NCBI RefSeq assembly: GCF_055900595.2
Contig: NZ_CM148325.1
DNA: 64,000 bases
Direction: 5' to 3' (one strand)
The notes beneath the pieces were generated by a model. That model worked only from the letters and a program-made list of their open reading frames with translations. It made no database searches and had not been told where the DNA came from. This document shows, in pieces, positions 4,600 through 64,000 of this stretch. The translations under genes and the position numbers were made by a program. Every line of letters begins with the position of its first letter. Position 1 is the stretch's first letter.

Positions 4600-4630
4600 C
4601 GAGATCAACTTGTTTTCAGGAAGGTGCCTT

Positions 4631-6292
4631 ATGATTAACCGTATCCGCGTAGTCACGCTGTTGGTAATGGTGCTGGGGGTATTCGCACTGTTACAGCTTA
4701 TTTCCGGCAGTCTGTTTTTTTCTTCCCTTCACCATAGCCAGAAGAGCTTTGTGGTTTCCAATCAATTACGGGAACAGCAGGGCGAGCTGACGTCAACCTG
4801 GGATTTAATGCTGCAAACGCGCATTAACCTGAGTCGTTCAGCGGTACGGATGATGATGGATTCCTCCAATCAACAAAGTAACGCCAAAGTTGAATTGCTC
4901 GATAGCGCCAGGAAAACATTGGCGCAGGCAGCGACGCATTATAAAAAATTCAAAAGCATGGCACCGTTACCTGAAATGGTCGCTACCAGTCGTAATATTG
5001 ATGAAAAATATAAAAACTATTACACAGCGTTAACTGAACTGATTGATTATCTAGATTATGGCAATACTGGAGCTTATTTCGCTCAGCCAACCCAGGGAAT
5101 GCAAAATGCAATGGGCGAAGCGTTTGCTCAGTACGCCCTCAGCAGTGAAAAACTGTATCGCGATATCGTCACTGACAACGCAGATGATTACCGATTTGCC
5201 CAGTGGCAACTGGCGGTTATCGCGCTGGTGGTGGTATTGATTCTGCTGGTGGCGTGGTACGGCATTCGCCGTATGTTGCTTACTCCGCTGGCAAAAATTA
5301 TTGCTCACATTCGCGAAATCGCCGGTGGTAACCTGGCGAATACCCTGACCATTGACGGGCGCAGTGAAATGGGCGACCTGGCGCAGAGCGTTTCACATAT
5401 GCAACGCTCTTTGACTGACACCGTCACTCATGTCCGCGAAGGTTCAGATGCCATCTATGCCGGTACCCGTGAAATTGCGGCGGGCAACACCGATCTTTCC
5501 TCCCGTACTGAACAGCAGGCATCCGCGCTGGAAGAAACTGCCGCCAGCATGGAGCAGCTCACCGCGACAGTGAAGCAAAACGCCGATAACGCCCGCCAGG
5601 CCTCGCAACTGGCGCAAAGTGCCTCCGACACCGCCCAGCACGGCGGCAAAGTGGTGGATGGCGTAGTGAAAACGATGCATGAGATCGCCGATAGTTCGAA
5701 GAAAATTGCCGACATTATCAGCGTTATCGACGGTATTGCCTTCCAGACTAATATCCTCGCGCTGAATGCCGCGGTTGAAGCCGCGCGTGCGGGTGAACAG
5801 GGCCGTGGTTTTGCCGTGGTGGCGGGTGAAGTGCGTAATCTTGCCAGTCGCAGCGCCCAGGCGGCAAAAGAGATCAAAGCCCTCATTGAAGACTCCGTCT
5901 CACGCGTTGATACCGGTTCGGTGCTGGTCGAAAGCGCCGGGGAAACAATGAACAATATCGTCAATGCTGTCACTCGCGTGACTGACATTATGGGCGAGAT
6001 TGCATCGGCATCGGATGAACAGAGCCGTGGCATCGATCAAGTCGCATTGGCGGTTTCGGAAATGGATCGCGTCACGCAACAGAACGCATCGCTGGTGCAG
6101 GAATCAGCTGCCGCCGCCGCTGCGCTGGAAGAACAGGCGAGTCGTTTAACGCAAGCGGTTTCCGCGTTCCGTCTGGCAGCCAGCCCACTCACCAATAAAC
6201 CGCAAACACCATCCCGTCCTGCCAGTGAGCAACCACCGGCACAGCCACGACTGCGAATTGCTGAACAAGATCCAAACTGGGAAACATTTTGA
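4631..6292 (+). CDS. tar: Methyl-accepting chemotaxis protein II Tar (aspartate/maltose receptor, 553 aa)
   Basis: ORF track 4610..6292 trimmed to ATG 4631 ([16 protein letters not shown]...); RBS caggaagg upstream; C-terminus ends NWETF. Confidence 0.95.
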
Positions 6293-30385: not shown

Positions 30386-30443
30386 TAAGATTCAGGGAAT
30401 ATTCATTGCCGACTGGCAATTACTAGGGCAGGGAGTGCCTCTG

Positions 30444-31952
30444 ATGACAATGTTAAAAACAGTAAGATTCTGGCTCGTCGAATTAATACTGCTGGCAGTT
30501 GTGTTGCCCGTATTAGCGATAATTTTTTACTCCTGTACTCTATTTTTTCCTTTTTACGCCGAAGGCGGTATCTTGGAGTTTAGCGCCACACTAATAGTGA
30601 CTGCTTTAAGTGGTCTGGCGTTAGGAAGGGTAAGAAGTGCCTTTGTCCCGCTAAATTTATCATTCATTTCCCTGATCCTCCCGGAAACCCTGCTACTTTT
30701 TTATACACTTGTTGTCTGGCTAACATTACTTATTATTACGGATAGTGAGTTTAATAGTGGACTATTTTATACCGGGCAGGATTGGTTGGGCATTTTCAGC
30801 CTATTAACTGAGGCTGCGACGGAAGACGAATTTTTTACGCCATCGTTAATGCAGGTGGCTACGCCTGCGATACCGGCTGTGGGTATTCTGGTCTATATTG
30901 TCTCACTGACGCATGCTGCAAGAGGGCGAAACCGGCTGACGAACATTGTAGGATGGCGTTATATCGTAATCCCGGTTTTAATGGCGGTTATAAGCATTGC
31001 GGGATTACTCGCATGGCAAATCCATGACAGAAGTGAAAGAAAAGTGGTCAGTGTGCCAGAAACGCAGCTTTCTGAGCGCTTGGCATTAAAAGATTATTCT
31101 CCCTTTACCGCCAATAATAAATTAACACACCTCAATGAACAGGCCACGCTGGCGATAGCGAGTAACTGGCCGCAACTGAATGGCGCGACAGCGCTCTATC
31201 CACTGTATGCCTCGATGGCGCAAATGGTTTATCGCAATCTGAATGAGGAAAGTGCCGAGGATTATATAAAGTGCTGGAAAACCCAGGGAGCCTACACAGC
31301 TTTGATAGAAGGGCGCGCGGATCTTATTTTTGTCGCCGAACCCTCTGATGAGCAACGAGAGCAGGCGCGTAACAGTGGCGTTGGTTTGCATTTTTATCCT
31401 CTGGCGCGAGAGGCTTTTGTTTTTGTCACTCATAAAGATAATCCGGTTACAGCGTTGAGTGATAAACAGATCCGCCAAATCTATTCTGGCGACATCAATA
31501 ACTGGCAGGATGTTGGCGGGCGCGACGCACGGATCATGCCTTTTCAGCGACCGGAAGGCTCAGGTAGCCAGACAATTATGTTAGCGGCTGTGATGAAGCA
31601 GGAAAAAATGCGCAAACCGCTGGAAACGGAACGGATAAGCGAAATGCAGGGGTTGATACGTAATGTTGCCAGCTATCAGAACAGTACAAATGCTTTGGGG
31701 TATACGTTCCGGTACTACTCAACACAAATGCACCACAGCGATAATCTCCGCTTGCTAGCGGTAAATGGTATTGCGCCAACGGCAGAAAATATTCGCAGCG
31801 GGAAGTACCCCTATACGGTAACGGTTTATATGGTTAGCGCGGGAAGACCTGACGCGCAGGTGCAAAAAATAATCGACTGGTTTTTGAGTGCGCAGGGGCA
31901 GAAAATGGTCGCTGAAACCGGATATATCCCGTTGGGAAAATCAACCAGGTGA
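30444..31952 (+). CDS. Accessory membrane protein: about 190-aa multi-pass TM region fused to a C-terminal PstS-like periplasmic binding domain (502 aa from ATG 30444); function unknown
   Basis: ORF track 30435..31952; ATG 30444 follows RBS gggag; 5-6 hydrophobic segments then PstS-like residues (GSGSQT, YTFRYY); not recalled in K-12. Confidence 0.7.
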   Translation: MTMLKTVRFWLVELILLAVVLPVLAIIFYSCTLFFPFYAEGGILEFSATLIVTALSGLALGRVRSAFVPLNLSFISLILPETLLLFYTLVVWLTLLIITDSEFNSGLFYTGQDWLGIFSLLTEAATEDEFFTPSLMQVATPAIPAVGILVYIVSLTHAARGRNRLTNIVGWRYIVIPVLMAVISIAGLLAWQIHDRSERKVVSVPETQLSERLALKDYSPFTANNKLTHLNEQATLAIASNWPQLNGATALYPLYASMAQMVYRNLNEESAEDYIKCWKTQGAYTALIEGRADLIFVAEPSDEQREQARNSGVGLHFYPLAREAFVFVTHKDNPVTALSDKQIRQIYSGDINNWQDVGGRDARIMPFQRPEGSGSQTIMLAAVMKQEKMRKPLETERISEMQGLIRNVASYQNSTNALGYTFRYYSTQMHHSDNLRLLAVNGIAPTAENIRSGKYPYTVTVYMVSAGRPDAQVQKIIDWFLSAQGQKMVAETGYIPLGKSTR

Positions 31953-31964
31953 ACATACGTAAAT

Positions 31965-31993
31965 GGCAAAAACCATCACCAATGGTTTTTGCC
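31965..31993. terminator. Strong hairpin between convergent accessory ORF and yebB (putative bidirectional terminator)
   Basis: Perfect 12-bp stem ggcaaaaaccat / atggtttttgcc with cacc loop; no clean U-tract on either side. Confidence 0.55.
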
Positions 31994-32029
31994 ATGATAT
32001 GCGACTCACACTGCTTCTGGCAGCCTGGT

Positions 32030-32602
32030 TTAGTCATTATGACTGGCATGGATTAACGTCAACCCCGGATGATGCCACAAACTGGCTGGCGTGACGGTTT
32101 TACGCTCCCACGGAATAGAACCTAAGAACCAGAATTTCCAGAAAGTGAGTTTTGCATTTGGATTGCTGTTTAGCAGTTCTCCAAACGTCTCTATTTCACC
32201 CACCGGAATACATAACGCCTCTTTATAAATATCAAAAACGAATTTTGAACAGAACTGGCGGGAAGATTCGTATTTAAAACCGGTGTGGTAGAACTTATGC
32301 AACCGGGCAGGGACCTTTTCGACAAGAGCAAGTTTCTGCTCTGCGGTTAAACCTCCTGCCAGGCGGCGAACACCGTAGCGTTGCTCGGTCGACCGTTCAA
32401 TAAATCGTGACAAAGTTGTGATTGTGGAGAGCGGAACTCGACTCTCCGCAACCAGGTAATCATCACCGTCATGTCCGATGATTATCCCCACATGGTTGCT
32501 CCAGCATTTCGAGGCTGCAGAGATTTGCCCAAACAGGCGAGCACCGATGCAGGTAAAAACAATATCACCGGTTTCATATTTAGCTGGGTAATTTATTTTC
32601 AC
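32030..32602 (-). CDS. yebB: YebB, permuted papain-fold (NlpC/P60-superfamily, YiiX/YaeF-like) putative amidase (190 aa)
   Basis: ORF track; [46 protein letters not shown]... Cys/His pair; no signal peptide. Confidence 0.8.
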
Positions 32603-34229: not shown

Positions 34230-34249
34230 CGCTGGATATCTATCCAGCA
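34230..34249 (+). promoter_or_regulatory. LexA (SOS) box of the ruvAB promoter
   Basis: cgCTGGatatctatCCAGca, the known CTGG-N8-CCAG variant SOS box, about 50 nt upstream of ruvA GTG. Confidence 0.85.
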
Positions 34250-47519: not shown

Positions 47520-48161
47520 ATGAAAAACTGGAAAACAAGTGCAGAATCAATCCTCACCACCGGCCCGGTTGTACCGGTTATCGTGGTAAAAAAACTGGAA
47601 CACGCGGTGCCGATGGCAAAAGCGTTGGTTGCTGGTGGGGTGCGCGTTCTGGAAGTGACTCTGCGTACCGAGTGTGCAGTTGACGCTATCCGTGCTATCG
47701 CCAAAGAAGTGCCTGAAGCGATTGTGGGTGCCGGTACGGTGCTAAATCCACAGCAGCTTGCAGAAGTCACCGAAGCGGGTGCACAGTTCGCAATTAGCCC
47801 GGGTCTGACCGAGCCGCTGCTGAAAGCTGCTACCGAAGGGACTATTCCTCTGATTCCGGGGATCAGCACTGTTTCCGAACTGATGCTGGGTATGGACTAC
47901 GGTTTGAAAGAGTTCAAATTCTTCCCGGCTGAAGCTAACGGCGGCGTGAAAGCCCTGCAGGCGATCGCGGGTCCGTTCTCCCAGGTCCGTTTCTGCCCGA
48001 CAGGTGGTATTTCTCCGGCTAACTACCGTGACTACCTGGCGCTGAAAAGCGTGCTCTGCATCGGTGGTTCCTGGCTGGTTCCGGCAGATGCGCTGGAAGC
48101 GGGCGATTACGACCGCATTACTAAGCTGGCGCGTGAAGCTGTAGAAGGCGCTAAGCTGTAA
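47520..48161 (+). CDS. eda: KDPG/KHG aldolase Eda (213 aa)
   Basis: ORF track; [51 protein letters not shown]... Confidence 0.97.
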
Positions 48162-48180
48162 AAGTCAAAATGCCCGATCG

Positions 48181-48206
48181 AGGATCGGGCATTTTTGTAG
48201 CATTTT
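48181..48206. terminator. Bidirectional terminator between convergent eda and purT
   Basis: gcccgatc / gatcgggc hairpin, A-run before and tttttg after. Confidence 0.75.
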
Positions 48207-48216
48207 TTTGCCGGGT

Positions 48217-49395
48217 TTAACCCTGTACTTTTACCTGTCCGGCGGCGTGCTTTGCGCGCTCAATCGCTTCATCAACACTCTCTGCAGTAGCCAGTGCCAC
48301 CCCCAGACGACGGCTGCCATCAATTTCCGGCTTACCAAATAAACGAATCTGTAGGCCTGCGCCTACGGCATTCTGCACATTATCAAACGTGACATTCTGA
48401 CTGGTCAGTTGTGGCAGGATAACGGCAGAAGCTGCAGGACCATACTGACGGATCTCGCCAACCGGAAGTCCGAGCAAGGCTCGCACATGCAGGGCAAACT
48501 CCGAGAGATCCTGAGAAATTAACGTCACCATCCCGGTATCATGTGGGCGAGGGGAGACCTCACTGAAAATCACCTCATCACCACAGACAAACAGCTCGAC
48601 ACCAAACAGACCATAACCGCCCAGCGCCAGTACTACTTTGCGGGCAATCTCCTGCGCACGTTTCAGAGCCAGCTGACTCATTTGCTGCGGTTGCCAGGAT
48701 TCACGATAGTCGCCATCTTCCTGGCGATGACCTACCGGTGCACAGAAATGGACGCCATCCACCGCGCTGACGGTTAGCAGGGTAATTTCGAAATCAAACT
48801 TAACGACGCCTTCAACAATTACGCGGCCCGCTCCGGCGCGACCGCCTTGCTGAGCGTATTCCCACGCATGTGTAAGCTGCTCGGCGGAACGAATAAACGT
48901 CTGCCCTTTGCCGGAAGAGCTCATTACCGGTTTAACTATGCAGGGATAGCCAATAGCGGCAACTGCTTCGCGGAAAAGACTTTCGCTATCGGCAAAACGA
49001 TAAGTTGAAGTGGGTAGCTGCAGTTCTTCTGCCGCCAGGCGACGAATACCCTCGCGATTCATCGTTAATTTCGTTGCGCGCGCGCAGGGGACAACATTCC
49101 GTCCTTCCTTTTCAAGCTGGATCAGCATATCGGTGGCAATAGCTTCGATCTCCGGCACGATATAATGTGGTTTTTCCAGTTCAACCACACGGCGTAATGC
49201 ATCACCATCAAGCATATTAATGACATGGGAGCGATGCGCAACATGCATAGCTGGCGCGTCGGTATAGCGATCGACGGCAATCACCTCTACGCCGAGACGC
49301 TGACACTCGATGGCCACTTCTTTACCCAGTTCACCGGAGCCTAATAACATCACGCGAGTTGCTGCCGGACGCAGCGCAGTGCCTAATAACGTCAT
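48217..49395 (-). CDS. purT: Formate-dependent GAR transformylase PurT (392 aa)
   Basis: ORF track; [44 protein letters not shown]... ATP-grasp. Confidence 0.96.
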
Positions 49396-49432
49396 AACGA
49401 ATATCCCCTGATTAATTCCGCGCGCAGTATAA

Positions 49433-49448
49433 ACGAAAACGTTTGCGC
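49433..49448 (-). promoter_or_regulatory. PurR operator (pur box) of purT
   Basis: + strand acgaaaacgtttgcgc; reverse complement fits ACGCAAACGTTTTCNT-type pur box, about 40 nt upstream of purT start. Confidence 0.7.
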
Positions 49449-49491
49449 GTGTCTTTATTGTTGATGTTGATTTCCCAATCGAGAAGAAATA

Positions 49492-49511
49492 TACTGTATA
49501 AAATCACAGTT
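49492..49511 (+). promoter_or_regulatory. LexA (SOS) box of yebG
   Basis: taCTGTataaaatcACAGtt, canonical CTGT-N8-ACAG, just upstream of yebG. Confidence 0.85.
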
Positions 49512-49528
49512 ATTATGAGAGGCTGCAA

Positions 49529-49819
49529 ATGGCGGTTGAAGTTAAATACGTAGTCATTCGTGAGGGCGAAGAGAAAATGTCGTTTACCAGCAAAAAGGAA
49601 GCCGATGCTTATGACAAAATGCTTGATACGGCGGATCTGCTTGACACCTGGCTGACAAATTCTCCAGTGCAAATGGAAGACGAGCAACGTGAAGCCCTTT
49701 CGCTATGGCTGGCAGAACAAAAAGATGTGCTGAGCACCATTCTGAAAACCGGCAAATTACCGTCCCCACAGGTCGTCGGTGCTGAATCCGAAGAGGAAGA
49801 TGCCTCACACGCGGCCTGA
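49529..49819 (+). CDS. yebG: YebG, SOS-inducible protein (96 aa)
   Basis: ORF track; MAVEVKYVVIREGEEKMSFTSKKEADAYDKMLDTADLLDTWL... Confidence 0.93.
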   Translation: MAVEVKYVVIREGEEKMSFTSKKEADAYDKMLDTADLLDTWLTNSPVQMEDEQREALSLWLAEQKDVLSTILKTGKLPSPQVVGAESEEEDASHAA

Positions 49820-49837
49820 AGCAACTTGCGCTCCTGA

Positions 49838-50242
<405 letters not shown>

Positions 50243-50265
50243 TGGCCTCTGATAATTCGATTGAC

Positions 50266-50352
50266 CGTCGGCGGATGCGGCGCGAGTGCCTGATCCGCCC
50301 TACAAGGCACCTCAATCGTAGGCCTGGGAAGACGCAACAGCGTCGCATCGGG
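50266..50352. repeat. REP/BIME cluster between yebF and yebE
   Basis: cggcggatgcggcgcgagtgcctgatccgccctaca and gtaggcctgggaagacgcaacagcgtcgcatcgggcaa units. Confidence 0.6.
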
Positions 50353-50568
50353 CAATCAGCATCAAACAATGCCACTCAAAACGTCAAATTACGTTCACCT
50401 AAAATACCCTTATCACCTGATATACAGTGAACACCTTACCTGGCGCGAATTTCTTTGAATAACGGCCTACCGACCCGCTTATTTGCGCATCTTTTGTCTC
50501 GATATACATTTTCTGACATCCTCATCCGCTATGCTACAGGCACTAAAAATGGTTATTGAGGAGCAAAT

Positions 50569-51228
50569 ATGGCTAACTGGTTAAATCAACTGCAATCCCT
50601 GCTTGGGCAAAGCAGTTCTTCTGCCTCCTCGTCTGCGGATCAGGGATTGGGCAAACTTTTAGTGCCAGGCGCATTAGGCGGATTGGCTGGGCTGCTGGTC
50701 GCAAATAAATCAGCACGTAAACTTCTTACGAAATATGGCACCAACGCGTTACTGGTTGGCGGCGGAGCGGTCGCGGGTACGGTGCTGTGGAATAAATACA
50801 AAGATAAAATTCGCGCGGCGCATCAGGACGAACCGCAGTTTGGCGCGCAAAGTACGCCGCTGGATGAGCGTACGGAACGTTTGATCCTTGCGCTGGTCTT
50901 TGCCGCTAAAAGTGATGGTCATATTGATGCCAAAGAACGTGCGGCAATCGACCAGCAATTGCGTGAAGCCGGCGTGGAAGAGCAGGGGCGTGTACTCATT
51001 GAGCAGGCAATCGAACAACCGCTGGATCCACAACGCTTGGCTACCGGGGTTCGTAATGAAGAAGAGGCGCTGGAAATCTATTTCCTGAGCTGCGCGGCTA
51101 TTGATATTGACCATTTTATGGAACGCAGTTACCTGAATGCACTGGGTGACGCGCTGAAAATCCCCCAGGACGTTCGTGAAGGCATTGAACGCGATCTCGA
51201 ACAGCAAAAACGCACTTTGGCGGAATAA
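50569..51228 (+). CDS. yebE: YebE, DUF533 inner membrane protein (219 aa)
   Basis: ORF track; [47 protein letters not shown]... Confidence 0.92.
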
Positions 51229-51407
51229 TTCCGCTCTGGATAGCCTGAAGTTGACTATTTCGGGCTATCCAGAACCGCACAGCCATTTGAGCAGGCTGAT
51301 TTTCTCTGTCTGCATAACATTCGATATCCGCGCCATTACCTGTCATCATCTAAGCAATGACTACCCTGTTTCGCTTGCATCCCCGGTGAGTTTTGCCACC
51401 CTTATAA

Positions 51408-54154
<2,747 letters not shown>

Positions 54155-56978: not shown

Positions 56979-57198
56979 AACATTTAAGCTGATGACCACC
57001 ACGCTTTTTATTGACCATTTTGCACGCAAACTGGAAAACCTGGCGTCGTCATCTATTCTTAAAGGGCAAGGCAACTAAGCCTGCATTAATGCCAACTTTT
57101 AGCGCACGGCTCTCTCCCAAGAGCCATTTCCCTGGACCGAATACAGGAATCGTGTTCGGTCTCTTTTTATCTGTTAAAAGCCAGAAGCATTCCCTTCG
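56950..57198 (-). ncRNA. ryeA: RyeA (SraC) sRNA, antisense to and fully overlapping SdsR; ends approximate
   Basis: Established ryeA/ryeB antisense pair between yebY and pphA; 3' end set at the 56936..56978 terminator, 5' end from recalled about 249-nt length. Confidence 0.5.
57066..57168 (+). ncRNA. sdsR: SdsR (RyeB) sigmaS-dependent sRNA, about 103 nt
   Basis: Sequence gcaaggcaactaagcctgcattaatgcc...gaatcgtgttcggtctcttttt matches recalled SdsR incl. terminator; upstream -10 tattct with -13 C. Confidence 0.8.
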
Positions 57199-57302
57199 CT
57201 GACTATATAGTCAACCATAACACACACTCTACTGTCTGAGTCCAGCGTTTTTTAACATTCTTGTTAAGATTATGTGATCTTTAGCGCGGGAGGAAAATAT
57301 TG

Positions 57303-57959
57303 ATGAAACAGCCTGCGCCCGTTTATCAGAGAATTGCGGGTCATCAATGGCGACATATCTGGCTTTCAGGCGATATACACGGTTGTCTTGAGCAGTTGCG
57401 CCGCAAATTATGGCATTGTCGTTTTGATCCGTGGCGAGATTTACTTATCTCAGTGGGAGACGTTATCGATCGTGGGCCGCAAAGTTTACGTTGCCTGCAG
57501 TTACTGGAACAACATTGGGTTCGTGCGGTAAGAGGCAATCATGAACAGATGGCGATGGATGCGCTGGCATCCCAGCAGATGTCTTTGTGGTTGATGAATG
57601 GCGGCGACTGGTTTATTGCGCTGGCAGATAATCAACAGAAACAAGCGAAAACGGCGCTGGAAAAATGTCAGTATTTGCCCTTTATTCTTGAAGTACACAG
57701 TCGCACCGGCAAACATGTTATTGCCCATGCCGATTATCCGGATGATGTTTATGAATGGCAAAAGGACGTCGATTTGCATCAGGTCTTGTGGAGCCGCTCA
57801 CGATTACGTGAAGGCCAAAAAGGGCAGGGAATTACAGGTGCTGATCATTTCTGGTTTGGTCATACACCGTTGCGCCATCGCGTGGATATTGGCAACCTGC
57901 ATTATATTGATACCGGTGCTGTCTTTGGGGGAGAACTGACTCTTGTGCAATTGCAATAA
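57303..57959 (+). CDS. pphA: Serine/threonine protein phosphatase 1 PphA (PrpA), PPP-family metallophosphatase (218 aa)
   Basis: ORF track 57300..57959 (TTG) trimmed to ATG 57303 (MKQPAPVYQRIAGHQWRHIWLSGDIHGCLEQL...). Confidence 0.93.
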   Translation: MKQPAPVYQRIAGHQWRHIWLSGDIHGCLEQLRRKLWHCRFDPWRDLLISVGDVIDRGPQSLRCLQLLEQHWVRAVRGNHEQMAMDALASQQMSLWLMNGGDWFIALADNQQKQAKTALEKCQYLPFILEVHSRTGKHVIAHADYPDDVYEWQKDVDLHQVLWSRSRLREGQKGQGITGADHFWFGHTPLRHRVDIGNLHYIDTGAVFGGELTLVQLQ

Positions 57960-58151
57960 TTAAAAATCACCGTACTCCTGTGCAGGTCGCCAGAAACCAT
58001 CTATAAAATCCTCAATCGGAAAACAACCGCCATGGCGGATCCGTTGATCGCTCATAGAATAAAGACACTGTTGTTCCGTGTTGTAGACATCCACAACAAT
58101 ATCTTCACAACCGCCATCCAGGTAGCAAACAAAAAGTACCAGCGCGAACAT
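57960..58151 (-). CDS. yebW: YebW small protein (63 aa)
   Basis: ORF track 57960..58235 trimmed to ATG at 58151 (MFALVLFVCYLDGGCEDIVVDVYNTEQQ...). Confidence 0.8.
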   Translation of the reverse strand: MFALVLFVCYLDGGCEDIVVDVYNTEQQCLYSMSDQRIRHGGCFPIEDFIDGFWRPAQEYGDF

Positions 58152-58255
58152 TTCATCCCCGAAGTGTGGTGCCGTACCGTTAAGTTTAGGAGAGATTTTA
58201 CAACGGGGGAATAACCAGGACAAATAACCCGCCATGCCGACGGGTTCTTTTTGGA

Positions 58256-58492
58256 TCAGGCAAGACGCATAATCCAGGCATCAGATTGTTGATCGTAACG
58301 GGTACGGTAAAGGACAGAGTGTTCGCCATTTAGCAGGGCAGGGATACTGGTTTCAGCATCCCAGGCATCCAGTTGCATACATAAATCGGGGTCTGATTTA
58401 CAAGGAATGGTTAACGTTCGATCACCCGGCGATTCACCGTGTAACTCGCCGTCGTCGATTTCAAAAGCGCCTATGCGCACACTGGTTTTCAT
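58256..58492 (-). CDS. yebV: YebV small protein (78 aa)
   Basis: ORF track 58256..58507 trimmed to ATG at 58492 (MKTSVRIGAFEIDDGELHGESPGDRTL...). Confidence 0.82.
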   Translation of the reverse strand: MKTSVRIGAFEIDDGELHGESPGDRTLTIPCKSDPDLCMQLDAWDAETSIPALLNGEHSVLYRTRYDQQSDAWIMRLA

Positions 58493-58609
58493 CTTCGTGC
58501 TCTCCATTTAGCTGCCGGTTGTGGTACGACCAGTTCGATCGCACCATTTTTCAGCCTAGTTGAGGCAGCCGAATGTGCCAGTCAAAAAGTGCGCTTTTTT
58601 TGTGCGCTG

Positions 58610-60055
58610 TCAGGCGTTACCTGTAAAAAGTTTCCCGTCCCGCACCAGTTCACGCGGGTAGCTGTTTTTCAGTCGCGAACCAATCCGTTTGGCTAAACCA
58701 ATCGGCTGCTGTTGGAAAGTAACCAATACATCATCCGCTACTGGCGCGGCTTGCGGGTAAACATCGCGCCCGCGATACCACTCTTCCGCTTCCTGCGGTG
58801 TCAGTTCAAAAGCGTTCACATTGTTGGGGGAGGCAAGGGCAATAACCGCTTCATGCTGCCAGCGATAACCTTTGTTATGTGTTTCGGCAAGTTTAATCCC
58901 CAACCGAGAAAATCGGACTTTACCGATCAAGGCTTCAATGCCCACCGGGAACAACCACAGTTCTTTGTCGCGTTGCCAGAGTCGCAGGTTTCCATCCCAG
59001 TTTAAGCCAACACTTGCAGCCGCCTGACGAATTTGACCGGCTTCGCGATCTTTCACCGGGCTAAACGGGAAATTGCCCACTTTGTATTTTGGGGCGGGTA
59101 AGACGGGGATCGCCTGAATTTTACGCAGACGAGCAACGAAGAAGCCTTCGCAGTCGTAAATTTGTGGGAAAACATGCAAAAAGCCTTCTTCGGTCAGCGC
59201 CTTATTTGCACCAGGGAAGAGATCGCCAAGCGGTAAAAACTCTACTGCGTCGGGGTAAGTCTCTTTCAGCCACCGGCAGACGGCTTCATTTTCTTCTTGG
59301 TTTAAGGTACAGGTCGAGTAAACCAGCGTACCGCCAGGACGTAATGCATGAAAGGCACTGTCGATCAGTTCACGCTGGGTGGCAGCGATTTCCTGATTGC
59401 TTTCTGGTGACCAGTTTTTCAGCGCATCGGGATCTTTACGCACCACGCCTTCGCCGGAGCAGGGGGCGTCCAGCAAAATGGCATCGAACATTTCTGGTAA
59501 TGCCGCACCAAATACGCGGCCATCAAAATGCGTGAGCGCAACATTACTGATGCCACAGCGGCTGATATTGGCATGTAACACTTTTACCCGACTGGCGGAA
59601 AACTCATTGGCAAGGATCGCCCCTTTGTTATTCATCCGTGCAGCAATTTGCGTCGTTTTGGAGCCTGGCGCAGCAGCGACATCCATCACCCGTTGTGGTG
59701 AATTACCGTCAGCAAACAAGGCGGCAACGGGCAACATTGAACTGGCTTCCTGAATATAAAACAGGCCGCTTAAATGCTCTGCGGTACTACCCAACGGCAA
59801 TGCATCTTCATCGTCGCGTTCAATCCAGAAACCTTCTTCACACCACGGAATAGGCGTAAGCGTCCAGTTATAAGGGGCGGTTAATTGCAGGAAATCAGCA
59901 ACGGAGATTTTCAGCGTATTAACGCGAATACTGCGGCGCAACGGGCGCTGACAGGCGGCAAGAAAATCATCAAATGAGAGCGTCGAAGGCATTGCTTCGC
60001 GCATTTGCGTCAGAAAGGCGTCCGGGAAATAAACGGTGTGTTGGGCCACGAGCAT
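58610..60055 (-). CDS. rsmF: 16S rRNA m5C1407 methyltransferase RsmF (YebU) (481 aa from ATG; 479 aa if GTG at 60049 is used)
   Basis: ORF track; [35 protein letters not shown]...; SAM-binding DAPCSGEG motif. Confidence 0.93.
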
Positions 60056-60128
60056 GTACCACAGGCAAAAAAACAGGCGCGCAGTTTAGCATAAACGCTC
60101 CGGCGCAGGCACGCCGGAGCAATGGACA

Positions 60129-62762
60129 TTATTTGGGCAGCGCAGTTCCCCATTCACGCCACTCTTTCGGTTCACTTTCCTGCAACAGGAAGTGCTTGCC
60201 CTCCTGGGCTTTCGGTGCCAGTGGCGTACCCGGAGGCGTGGCGAAGGCAATGCCGCCACGGATAAACTGGTTAAAGGTGCCGGTTTTCACCACGCCGCCC
60301 GTCAGACCAAAGTCCAGACTGTAACCCGATGCCAACCAGAAGACGGAATTGTTACGCACCAGGTGTTGATAGCGTTTACTGATGCGCATCGCAATCATCA
60401 CGCGATCTGACAATGTCCCCAGCGTCATTCCGGTAACCGTACCAACTTCCAGACCACGGAACAGCACAGGCGTACCGATGCCTAACGAACCGGCTTCCGG
60501 CGCTTCAACAATAATGCTTAAGCCATCCAGGTAACGCGAATCAGTTATGGTGGCCTCTTGTAATTCAAAGTCGCGGCGAGGATTGCCCCGGCCAGGTTCG
60601 ACGTTGATATACGGCTGGAGGATAGTATCAAGATGCTCAACGCCAGCTGCCGAAATTTGCGGTGTGACCACTGAGAAGCGTGTACCACCGCGTGCAAAGG
60701 TCTGGACATATTCCGGATAGAGCACCGCCTTTGCCTGTACTTCATTGCGCGCGGTAATCAGATCCAGCGTCTGAATTTGCCCGATATCAATACCGAGATA
60801 GCGAATTGGCATCCCGACTGCCAGTTTTCCGGCATCGAAAGCGTGGAGCGTAATCTGTCCGCCAACCGCACGGGCCGCTGTTTCGGAAGCATACAGAATT
60901 CGCTTGTCACCTTTACGTTGGCTGGCGCTGGCACCGCTGAGGTTATCGAAGCTAATAGCCCCCTTTAATGCTCTGGAGAGTGGGGATGCCTGTACAGTCA
61001 GACCACTACCATTTAGCTGAACTTTCGCCCCACCTTCTGCCCAGAACACGCTGTTGCTGGTCAGAAGGTTGCGATACTCCGGCTTAATATGCAAATCGAT
61101 ATCAAACGCGTTAGCTCGCGGACGCACAGTAATAACTTCACCAACTTCAAATTTACGGTATAGCACTACCGATCCTGCCTGTACATCCGGCAGCGTCTCT
61201 GCACTCAAACTCACGGTTGTGGTGGGTAAATCGCTAAGGCTGTTCTCCAGCGCTTTTTCCAGATTGGCATACAGTGGATAGCTGGCTTTCATCTCGCCTT
61301 TATCGCCTGGCAGAATACGTATCCCGCCGTTAATCCATTCTGAGGCGCTGGCACCGAGAAACTCAACGCCATCCAGCCCCACCTTCACGTCGACACGGCT
61401 GTTGACGACAAATTTGCTATCGCCTTTTACCAGTTCGCGATGCTGAGGCTCGATGGCGACGGTAAAGGTGACGCCTTTGCTGGTGAGTTTACGATCAATA
61501 ACCTGGCCTACCTGCACGCCGTGAAGAATGAGCGGCTGACCAGCATCAATGCCGTAACTTTCTGGTGCTGTCAGGGTCAGTGTCAGAACATCCGGCTCTT
61601 GTAGCAGGGCTTTTTCGCCTGGCACAACAACGAACTCTTTGCGTGGCTCGCCATCGCCGGGCACCAACTCAAAGGTTTTTCCGGTCAGCAGGGCGCTGAG
61701 ATTGGCATCGCTAAGGGATAATTTCGGGTTGCGTAATTCGATGCGAGTATTTTCACGAAGCAGGGTGACGACGCTGGGATCAACGGTCATTTCCCCAGTG
61801 ACTTTACCACCAGGATTTAAATCCAGTTTAGTCAGCTGTCCGACTTCCAGCCCCTGATACATTAACGGCGTCGAGTCGGCGGTTAATCCGGCCCCACTCG
61901 GCAGTTCCAGTTTTATTATTACGCCACGCTGGCTGTGGGCGAGATCTTCATACAGACCAAAGGTATCTTCCGCCTCGGCAGGTTTCGACTCTTCAGGTGA
62001 ATCGAAGGCAATCGCACCGTTAACCAGTGCCGCCAGACTTTCCAGTTTCACCTTCGCGCCACTGATACTGACGTTGGCATCAACGCCAGAAACATTCCAG
62101 AAACGGCTACCTTTTTTCACCAGGTCGGTAAAACGCCGCTCGATCAGGACATCAATCACCACGCCTTGTTTATTGGGATTGATGGCATAGTCGTAGACTT
62201 TTCCCACCGGGATCTTGCGGAAATAGACCAATGAACCACTGTTCAGTGAACCGAGATCGGGGGCTTGCAGGTGGATCATCAGATCGCCATTATCCAGCCG
62301 ATACTTCGGTTGGGTATCGAGTGCGACAAAGTGATCCTGCTCTTTACCTTTACCCGGCATCATACCGATATAGTTACCACCGACGAGGGCATCCAGCCCG
62401 GAGACACCTGCCAGTGAGGCCTTTGGCGTCACCAGCCAGAACTGTGTCTCTTCGCGCAGCGCATCTTTCATATCAGACTTGATGCTGACCTTGACTTCAA
62501 TCTTACGAAGATCGTCGCTCAGGCTGATATCCTGCACAGTTCCGACTTCAACGCCCTGATAACGAACAGGGGTGCGGCCCGGGACAATACCATCCGCCGA
62601 CATAAAGTCGATGGTGACGGTATTACCCCGGTCCTGATAACTATCCCAAATCAGCCAACCGGCAATCATTAGCGCGATGAACGGCAGCAGCCAGAAAGGT
62701 GAGATACGGCGTTTATTTTTAATCTGCGCTTCAGTCGTCGAAGCGGGCGTTTCCTGACTCAT
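60129..62762 (-). CDS. letB: LetB (YebT), multi-MCE-domain envelope-spanning lipid tunnel protein (877 aa)
   Basis: ORF track 60129..62804 trimmed to ATG at 62762 ([39 protein letters not shown]...). Confidence 0.93.
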
Positions 62763-64000
62763 GTGCATCCCAAAGTAAGCGGCTGTCCAGCCATTCCACA
62801 GCAAGAATAGTCAAAATTACCGCTGCGCCGAAATAAAACGCAGCCGGTCCCATAGTAAAAGCGAGGATCTGATCGCGATTAATCAGCGACATGGTTAAAG
62901 ATATGACAAACAGGTCGAGCATCGACCAGCGACCAATCCAGGTCACCATCCGCAGTAACAGAATGCGTGTGCGTAAACCTTGCTGGCATTTAAAATGAAT
63001 ACTCAACAGTAAAGTGAACATGACGATCACTTTAGTAAACGGCACCAGAATACTGGCGATAAACACGATTCCGGCGACCGCAATGTTGCTACTTGCCAGC
63101 GACATAATCCCGGAAAGAATCGTATCTTCCTGCCGGCCACCATTCAGATAAATGATAGAAATAGGTAACAGGTTGGCAGGTAACAACAACACGATTGATG
63201 CTAACAGCGCCGCCCAGCACTTTTGCAGACTATGACGGCGACGCAGGCGTAGCGGGATATGGCAACGCGGGCAGCGACCACGCTGATCAGGATAGCCGGT
63301 AAAATGGCACCCAAGACAGACACGGAGTTTCTCGTCTCTACGTGTAGCGGGGAGCTGCGGATAAAATCGCGCCCACAGTTCCTCGACATTAAGATGTGAC
63401 AACGTCACCGTGGTCAATATCACTAATGCAACAAAAGAGAACAGACCAATACCCGCCTGAATGTGCGCATAATCCTGCACCTTTATAGAAGCAACGCCAA
63501 TACCGACCAGATAGATGTCCAGCATCACCCACTCTTTCAATCGCTCAAGCATCAGCAGTACCGGGCGTAGATTCATTCCCAGTCGGTTACCAAACCATAA
63601 ATAAGCTATGGAGGTCACCAGAATAAGGGGGGCACCAATAACGCAAAAAAAGACCATCGCCCCCGTTATTGCATCGCCCTGTTTGGTCATTTGCCAGATG
63701 CCTTGCATGACATTGGCGTCAATACGAATACCTAACAGCCAGATATGCAACAGCGGTTCGCCCCAGGCAAACGGCATCAGCAACAGCATGGTGAATGCCA
63801 TTGCTGCCAGGCGCGTTAGCGACCAGTCGCGCCCGTCAAGAATTTTTGCCTGACAGCGCGGACAATAGGCACTTTGATGAGAGTTTATCTCGGGTAGGCT
63901 AAACAGCATGTCACATTGCGGGCAACGTTGGTAATCACCACGCGGCAGTTCCTCGCCAATTGCCATCACTGTTATCTTTTTTGTCGGCGTAATTTGTGGT
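62731..64000 (-). CDS. letA: LetA (YebS), PqiA-like inner membrane protein; 5' end (a few codons) beyond window edge
   Basis: ORF track 62731..63969; reading frame stays open to position 64000 (...[11 protein letters not shown]...); overlaps letB start by 32 nt. Confidence 0.88.

Follow-up and report, generated by a model that had tools for sequence, protein, structure and literature searches.

Adjacent PurR and LexA operators in the divergent purT–yebG promoter region of Escherichia coli behave as independent modules

When two genes of unrelated regulons share one short divergent promoter region, as purT and yebG do on the Escherichia coli chromosome, are the signals of their two repressors integrated or do the two operators simply lie side by side? 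We asked this of a 64,000-nucleotide stretch of contig NZ_CM148325.1 (RefSeq assembly GCF_055900595.2), referred to here as the window, for which a first-pass annotation made from the letters alone had placed a pur box on the purT side and a canonical SOS box on the yebG side of a 133-nt gap and had concluded that two unrelated regulons meet there. They do meet there, with a shift of emphasis: the two sites are juxtaposed, not integrated. We are highly confident that the gap holds two separate, back-to-back σ70 simple-repression promoters, each with one repressor site of its own and with regulators that act independently. The purT–yebG arrangement, both sites included, is already known and the region has been dissected experimentally before; the comparative result described below is new here and argues against signal integration.

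The window is E. coli chromosome. Of 5426 complete E. coli genomes, 5425 match an 801-nt stretch around the purT–yebG gap at 95–100% identity. The two genes diverge from a 133-nt intergenic gap (49396–49528), exactly as annotated, the first nucleotide of purT (minus strand) being 49395 and that of yebG (plus strand) 49529. Their identities also held, the Pfam matches (ATP-grasp and PurT_C for purT, YebG for yebG) being in agreement with RefSeq, in which the order beyond yebG is yebF, yebE and ptrB (Table 1). A sequence scan of the interval between yebG and yebF revealed neither a promoter-like nor a terminator-like site, which fits the published LexA dependence of yebF, a gene described as fully LexA-controlled (Thomassen 2010, PMC3009722); yebG and yebF probably share one transcript that starts at the LexA-controlled promoter. 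An Rfam scan of positions 48000–51500 (E up to 1) found no RNA family within the purT–yebG gap, and therefore there is no hidden RNA element to account for. Its only hits were two sub-threshold matches to the REP-derived family naRNA4 between yebF and yebE (50224–50372, minus strand), which score 30.6 and 23.1 bits where the gathering score is 59.5 and are most likely REP elements. A minus-strand open reading frame of 91 amino acids crosses the gap (49412–49687); it lies antisense to yebG and lacks any support, and for these reasons we discounted it as a mechanical ORF.

Table 1. Genes, operators and promoter elements of the purT–yebG region, in window coordinates
Feature	Coordinates	Strand	Sequence or product	Basis
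purT	48217..49395	-	392-aa ORF; formate-dependent GAR transformylase	Pfam ATP-grasp + PurT_C; RefSeq annotation of a 99.9%-identical record
Probable purT ribosome-binding site	49404..49409	-	AGGGGA	8 nt ahead of ATG; read from sequence, inferred; CCCC/CCT partly conserved
purT -10 hexamer	49426..49431	-	TATACT	Consensus scan; conserved to at least 95% in 58 distinct sequences; agrees with Belliveau 2018
PurR operator (pur box)	49433..49448	.	ACGAAAACGTTTGCGC	PWM 22.9 bits; inside the 18-nt purT promoter spacer
purT -35 hexamer	49450..49455	-	AAGACA	Consensus scan; TGTCTTT conserved in most Enterobacteriaceae
Probable yebG -35 hexamer	49467..49472	+	TTGATT	Consensus scan; TTGA moderately conserved
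Probable yebG -10 hexamer	49490..49495	+	TATACT	Consensus scan; TATAC at least 80-95% conserved; 4-nt overlap with LexA box
LexA operator (SOS box)	49492..49511	.	TACTGTATAAAATCACAGTT	PWM 22.9 bits; identical to K-12 yebG box and published box
Probable yebG ribosome-binding site	49517..49522	+	GAGAGG	Read from sequence, inferred; GGCTGCA + GAGG conserved
yebG	49529..49819	+	96-aa ORF; DNA damage-inducible protein, function unknown	Pfam PF07130 YebG, E 4e-34; RefSeq
yebF	49886..50242	+		RefSeq annotation of matching record

A pur box is a 16-bp imperfect palindrome with a central CG, for which the consensus is given as ACGNAAACGTTTGCNT (Cho 2011) or as ACGCAAACGTTTGCGT. The 16-mer annotated as such on the purT side has exactly the sequence and coordinates reported for it and overlaps the purT core promoter. 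The palindrome is detected, 14 of its 16 positions agree with the perfect pur palindrome (two mismatches), and it is the sole match in the window at up to three mismatches. That loose pattern is not significant alone, at least one match being found in 36 of 100 shuffles, and for significance we replaced permissive pattern searches, both for the pur palindrome and for the CTGT-N8-ACAG core of SOS boxes, by leave-one-out matrix scans. The PurR matrix drew on the 27 other ChIP-supported sites tabulated by Cho et al. 2011 (Table 1; NAR, PMC3159470), the purT site being omitted. Scored in this way, the purT pur box reaches 22.9 bits, exceeds 25 of the 27 training sites (range 12.0–23.6, median 20.2) and is the top PurR match in the 64-kb window; none of 200 Markov-1 random 64-kb sequences attained its score (random maximum 21.5). 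It is positioned 37 nt ahead of the purT ATG. A second PurR-like 16-mer, CGGAAACCGCTTGCGT, at 6149–6164 on the minus strand (17.6 bits), falls in the 3' portion of an ORF for a Tar-like chemoreceptor (4610–6292) and is probably a chance match, its score being within about one SD of random-sequence maxima (15.3 ± 2.2).

The last base of the pur box, at 49448, is polymorphic in E. coli: it is C in the window and T in K-12, where the box at the orthologous site ends in ...GCGT. Scored with one PurR matrix, the C allele gives 23.0 bits versus 25.1 bits for the T allele. The C-allele 16-mer of the window is identical to the purHD operator of the E. coli PurR regulon (Cho 2011 Table 1, PMC3159470), which stands in another gene and promoter context, and is thus a proven operator sequence. 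A 40-mer around the pur box was present in 5425 of 5426 E. coli genomes (exact in 1523, with one mismatch in 3902), counts that fit a majority of the species carrying T, as K-12 does.

SOS boxes are 20-bp palindromes, TACTGTATATATATACAGTA, with a CTGT-N8-ACAG core. The site annotated on the yebG side likewise proved exact in sequence and coordinates; it overlaps the yebG core promoter and carries a perfect core at 49494–49509. The core pattern itself occurs twice in the window against 0.61 expected, and two or more matches arose in 10 of 100 shuffles. The LexA matrix was derived from the 17 other boxes published by Thomassen et al. 2010 (Table 4; PMC3009722), with the yebG box omitted, and the yebG box scores 22.9 bits against it, more than 10 of the 17 training boxes (range 16.8–30.0, median 22.5). 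This was the top LexA match in the window and a score attained by none of 200 random 64-kb sequences (random maximum 20.0). Each operator of the first-pass annotation is therefore the best match to its own matrix in the whole window, and for neither was there the sub-threshold score that the annotation had named as its refutation.

For the 40-mer around the LexA box (49482–49521), 4156 E. coli genomes show no mismatch within the aligned part, 1237 differ at one position and 32 at two or three. The box of the species' GTDB representative (L003) reads TACTGTATAAAAATACAGTT and scores higher, at 26.5 bits. In Salmonella, where the yebG box is 17 bp from the ATG and nalidixic acid induces the gene 41-fold, a natural SNP in the box shifts the fraction of ON cells (PMC8072944); given this reported effect, the E. 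coli alleles of the box could matter phenotypically. A candidate CRP site (TGTGA-N6-TCACA) read by eye over the LexA box was rejected, as the letters are TGTAT-N4-TCACA and the spacing is wrong. Elsewhere in the window, a second strong LexA box, CGCTGGATATCTATCCAGCA, occurs at 34230–34249 and scores 21.5 bits; its sequence is that of the published ruvA SOS box, itself a member of the training set, and collinearity with strain RMDEC465 places the ruvA start shortly downstream of it. With this ruvA-type box and the yebG box, the window has two SOS operators. Two further sequences lie just upstream of a motA-like ORF (183–1070), a weak LexA-like site at 25–44 on the minus strand (14.6 bits) and an exact CTGT-N8-ACAG, CTGTCATGGTCAACAG, at 152–167. 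We regard the former as a chance match, since its score is within about one SD of random-sequence maxima (12.7 ± 2.4), and the latter is at chance level by the matrix test.

How are these operators placed with respect to the promoters? A consensus promoter scan of the gap returned exactly one σ70-like promoter in each direction (Table 1). The purT -35 and -10 hexamers are separated by an 18-nt spacer and the 16-bp pur box falls wholly within it. On the opposite side the spacer is 17 nt, and the LexA box begins 2 nt into the yebG -10, covers the expected start site and ends 17 nt ahead of the yebG ATG. Belliveau 2018 (PMC6003448) located the yebG RNA polymerase site 9 bp downstream of an older computational prediction; from our scan and from conservation we favour TTGATT-17-TATACT as the predicted yebG promoter, and the LexA box overlaps the -10 and the start region under either promoter assignment. 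The two -35 hexamers are 11 nt apart (that of purT extends up to 49455 and that of yebG begins at 49467), and the operators are separated by 43 nt edge to edge or 61 bp centre to centre. Each operator overlaps its own -10/-35 elements only; neither touches the core promoter of the other gene.

This geometry can be set beside that of known systems. Classical SOS promoters, such as those with the recA, sulA, umuDC and dinD boxes (Thomassen 2010, PMC3009722), have a single LexA box that overlaps either the -10 or the start site. The yebG box resembles these in being a 20-bp palindrome with a CTGT-N8-ACAG core near the start codon and in its mid-range strength; its right half is TCACAGTT rather than ATACAGTA, which makes it weaker than the umuDC, dinD and sbmC boxes. 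Where yebG departs from classical SOS promoters is in sharing its upstream DNA with the promoter of a biosynthetic gene. The LexA box between uvrA and ssb is a single operator shared by divergent promoters. That locus is likewise a short divergent intergenic region with an SOS box. Unlike uvrA/ssb, purT–yebG has two different repressors and two separate operators with 43 nt between them. Integrated control through one shared operator is thus not what we found at purT–yebG: the operators are separate and the pur box persists without a LexA box in 21 species.

Much is known of the orthologous K-12 locus. In PurR ChIP-chip, purT had a peak whether or not adenine was present, the motif being ACGAAAACGTTTGCGT, and PurR together with adenine represses purT (Cho 2011, PMC3159470). 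Belliveau 2018 (PNAS, PMC6003448) analysed the purT–yebG intergenic region by Sort-Seq in both directions, an approach that separates directional features, and presented the whole region in one figure. For purT these authors resolved a -35, a -10 and, between them, a repressor site that was seen only with adenine, was lost in a purR deletion strain and enriched PurR in DNA-affinity mass spectrometry with hypoxanthine; they called purT a simple-repression architecture. For yebG they found LexA and RNA polymerase sites together with induction by mitomycin C (PMC6003448). LexA control of yebG is supported further by UV tiling arrays and lexA mutants (Thomassen 2010, PMC3009722) and by RNA-seq after AZT treatment, in which yebG showed 4.4-fold induction, a lexA dependence of 9.7-fold and a heterology index of 6.3 (PMC11228462). 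The AZT study names purT only as SspA-dependent, not as LexA-dependent (PMC11228462).

The K-12 region (b1849/b1848) is the same locus as that in the window, with the same 133-nt gap and the same gene order (eda, purT, yebG, yebF, yebE, ptrB). The two do not differ in the LexA box, in either purT hexamer or in the yebG -10. The 173 aligned nucleotides differ by five substitutions and no change in length; one of these is the C-for-T difference at the last pur box position and the other four are in non-conserved DNA between the promoters. By analogy with the K-12 orthologue, from which the LexA box does not differ and the pur box differs by one base, we would expect the window's own alleles to be under PurR and LexA control.

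To compare the arrangement among relatives we used a PurT-based scan, which yielded 80 species loci from Enterobacteriaceae and Erwiniaceae. Every one of the 80 has a pur box of at least 18.3 bits at 33–45 nt ahead of the purT ATG, and in 63 of them it reads ACGAAAACGTTTGCGT. The yebG gene is divergent from purT in 58 of these species, across a gap of 126–163 nt. All 58 possess a pur box of at least 20.5 bits 35–44 nt before purT, and all 58 also possess a LexA box of at least 16.1 bits (median 25.9) 12–19 nt before the yebG ATG. Measured between their centres, the operators are 59–63 bp apart in 54 of the 58. A phylogenetic footprint of the 58 distinct sequences confines conservation of at least 95% to two blocks, the purT -10 with the pur box and the yebG -10 with the LexA box. 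Conservation is weaker in the purT -35, in the TTGA of the yebG -35 and in the ribosome-binding regions, and the DNA between the two promoters is poorly conserved or not conserved.

The spacing outliers are the loci from Superficieibacter (L062), Klebsiella pneumoniae (L072), Enterobacter sp. ENT03 (L073) and Mangrovibacter (L064). Two of the four have a distance of 71 bp, with about 10 bp inserted between the -35 hexamers, one has 93 bp (about 32 bp inserted) and one has 55 bp, through a deletion. With just two insertions of roughly a helical turn, phasing cannot be claimed.

The remaining 22 loci, which do not have yebG beside purT, allow the two operators to be followed separately. All 22 keep a pur box 33–45 nt ahead of purT. 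One of them is cut by a contig end, leaving 21 testable for a LexA box, and within 400 nt upstream of purT these 21 have no comparable LexA box, with scores of at most 8.5 bits save for one; the exception, a 16.1-bit match in Leclercia, is found some 370 nt upstream of purT, near the outer limit of the scanned segment. Since the pur box is kept without yebG and a LexA box is found in all yebG-adjacent species, each box accompanies its own gene, the LexA box yebG and the pur box purT. In this set of about 80 enterobacterial species the two operators behave as independent modules, each gained or lost with its own gene. Absence of yebG beside purT is seen in the Enterobacter cloacae complex, Lelliottia, Kluyvera, Pseudocitrobacter, Trabulsiella, Yokenella, Pluralibacter and some Pantoea (among the 22 are loci L017, L028, L030, L034, L035, L037, L038, L040 and L041). 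There, yebF is usually missing too and the divergent neighbour is mostly yebE, about 170–280 nt away.

We propose the following mechanism for sites whose matrix scores, geometry, conservation and independent gain and loss come from this analysis and whose binding and regulatory response come from the K-12 literature. At purT, a PurR dimer carrying hypoxanthine or guanine would bind the pur box in the spacer between AAGACA and TATACT and would exclude RNA polymerase there, so that purine excess shuts off purT. At yebG, a LexA dimer on the SOS box, over the -10 and the start-site region, would keep yebG and probably yebF at a low level, until DNA damage leads to RecA-stimulated self-cleavage of LexA and to the release of yebG and, probably, yebF. 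Both repressors are thought to block RNA polymerase sterically; the steric occlusion, like the exact start sites, is inferred. Each regulator would act on its own gene alone, and the juxtaposition would reflect compact gene packing rather than signal integration.

Two other explanations deserve consideration. The two promoters could be functionally coupled, such that firing or repression of one alters the other through competition for shared upstream DNA or through transcription-generated supercoiling. The geometry invites the idea, with -35 hexamers 11 nt apart and start sites roughly 80–85 bp apart, and so does the operator distance of 59–63 bp, which is held in 54 of 58 species despite poor conservation between the -35 elements; two of the four outliers, moreover, differ by about one helical turn (71 bp). 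However, the purT promoter, the pur box and their geometry are unchanged in the 21 species that lack yebG and the LexA box. The K-12 data of Belliveau 2018 (PMC6003448) point the same way, as the directional features were separable and purT showed simple repression by PurR alone, and so does the AZT study (PMC11228462), in which purT was SspA-dependent and not LexA-dependent. Fixed spacing, furthermore, follows trivially from two spacers of fixed length and a short gap, and one outlier species has a distance of 93 bp. We therefore judge functional coupling to be very unlikely, and we give equally little credence to the idea that the near-constant 60–62-bp operator spacing, along with -35 hexamers about 11 nt apart, has been selected through mechanical coupling of the promoters, whether by competition for polymerase or upstream DNA or by local supercoiling. 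If the two promoters are independent, the conserved 59–63-bp spacing is a by-product of tight promoter packing only. Were coupling real, SOS derepression of yebG would tune purT, and with it formate-dependent purine synthesis, in DNA damage or, alternatively, PurR occupancy would tune basal yebG expression.

Even less probable is a chance resemblance, in which one of the motifs, or both, would play no part in regulation in this strain. The thought arises from the weakness of the loose patterns (36 of 100 shuffles for the pur palindrome and 10 of 100 for two or more CTGT-N8-ACAG) and from the C that the window's pur box has where K-12 has T. Against this, neither full matrix score was attained in any of the 200 random 64-kb sequences, conservation of both sites extends over two families of Enterobacterales, the C-allele sequence is that of the proven purHD operator and its 40-mer is exact in 1523 E. 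coli genomes, and direct experiments exist on the K-12 orthologue (PMC6003448, PMC3159470). Two separately repressed promoters placed back to back remain the reading that we prefer, and none of our results speaks against it.

The region is a textbook-style case of two packed simple-repression promoters, and massively parallel promoter dissection has already used it as a test case. Its weight as a discovery is small; the analysis confirms that the motif calls of the first-pass annotation are reliable. The independent gain and loss of the two operators provides a clean baseline for tests of divergent promoter coupling.

Finally, the surroundings of the locus vary among strains. The closest match to the purT locus, strain RMDEC465, is collinear with the window only over about 25875–57169; non-collinear segments are 1–25874, 30386–32045 and 57170–64000. 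The upstream part of the window carries motA, motB, cheA, cheW and two genes for Tar-like receptors where RMDEC465 has a lambdoid prophage, and the IS621 that adjoins ruvB in RMDEC465 is absent from the window. These departures from RMDEC465 are strain-specific insertions around a conserved core.
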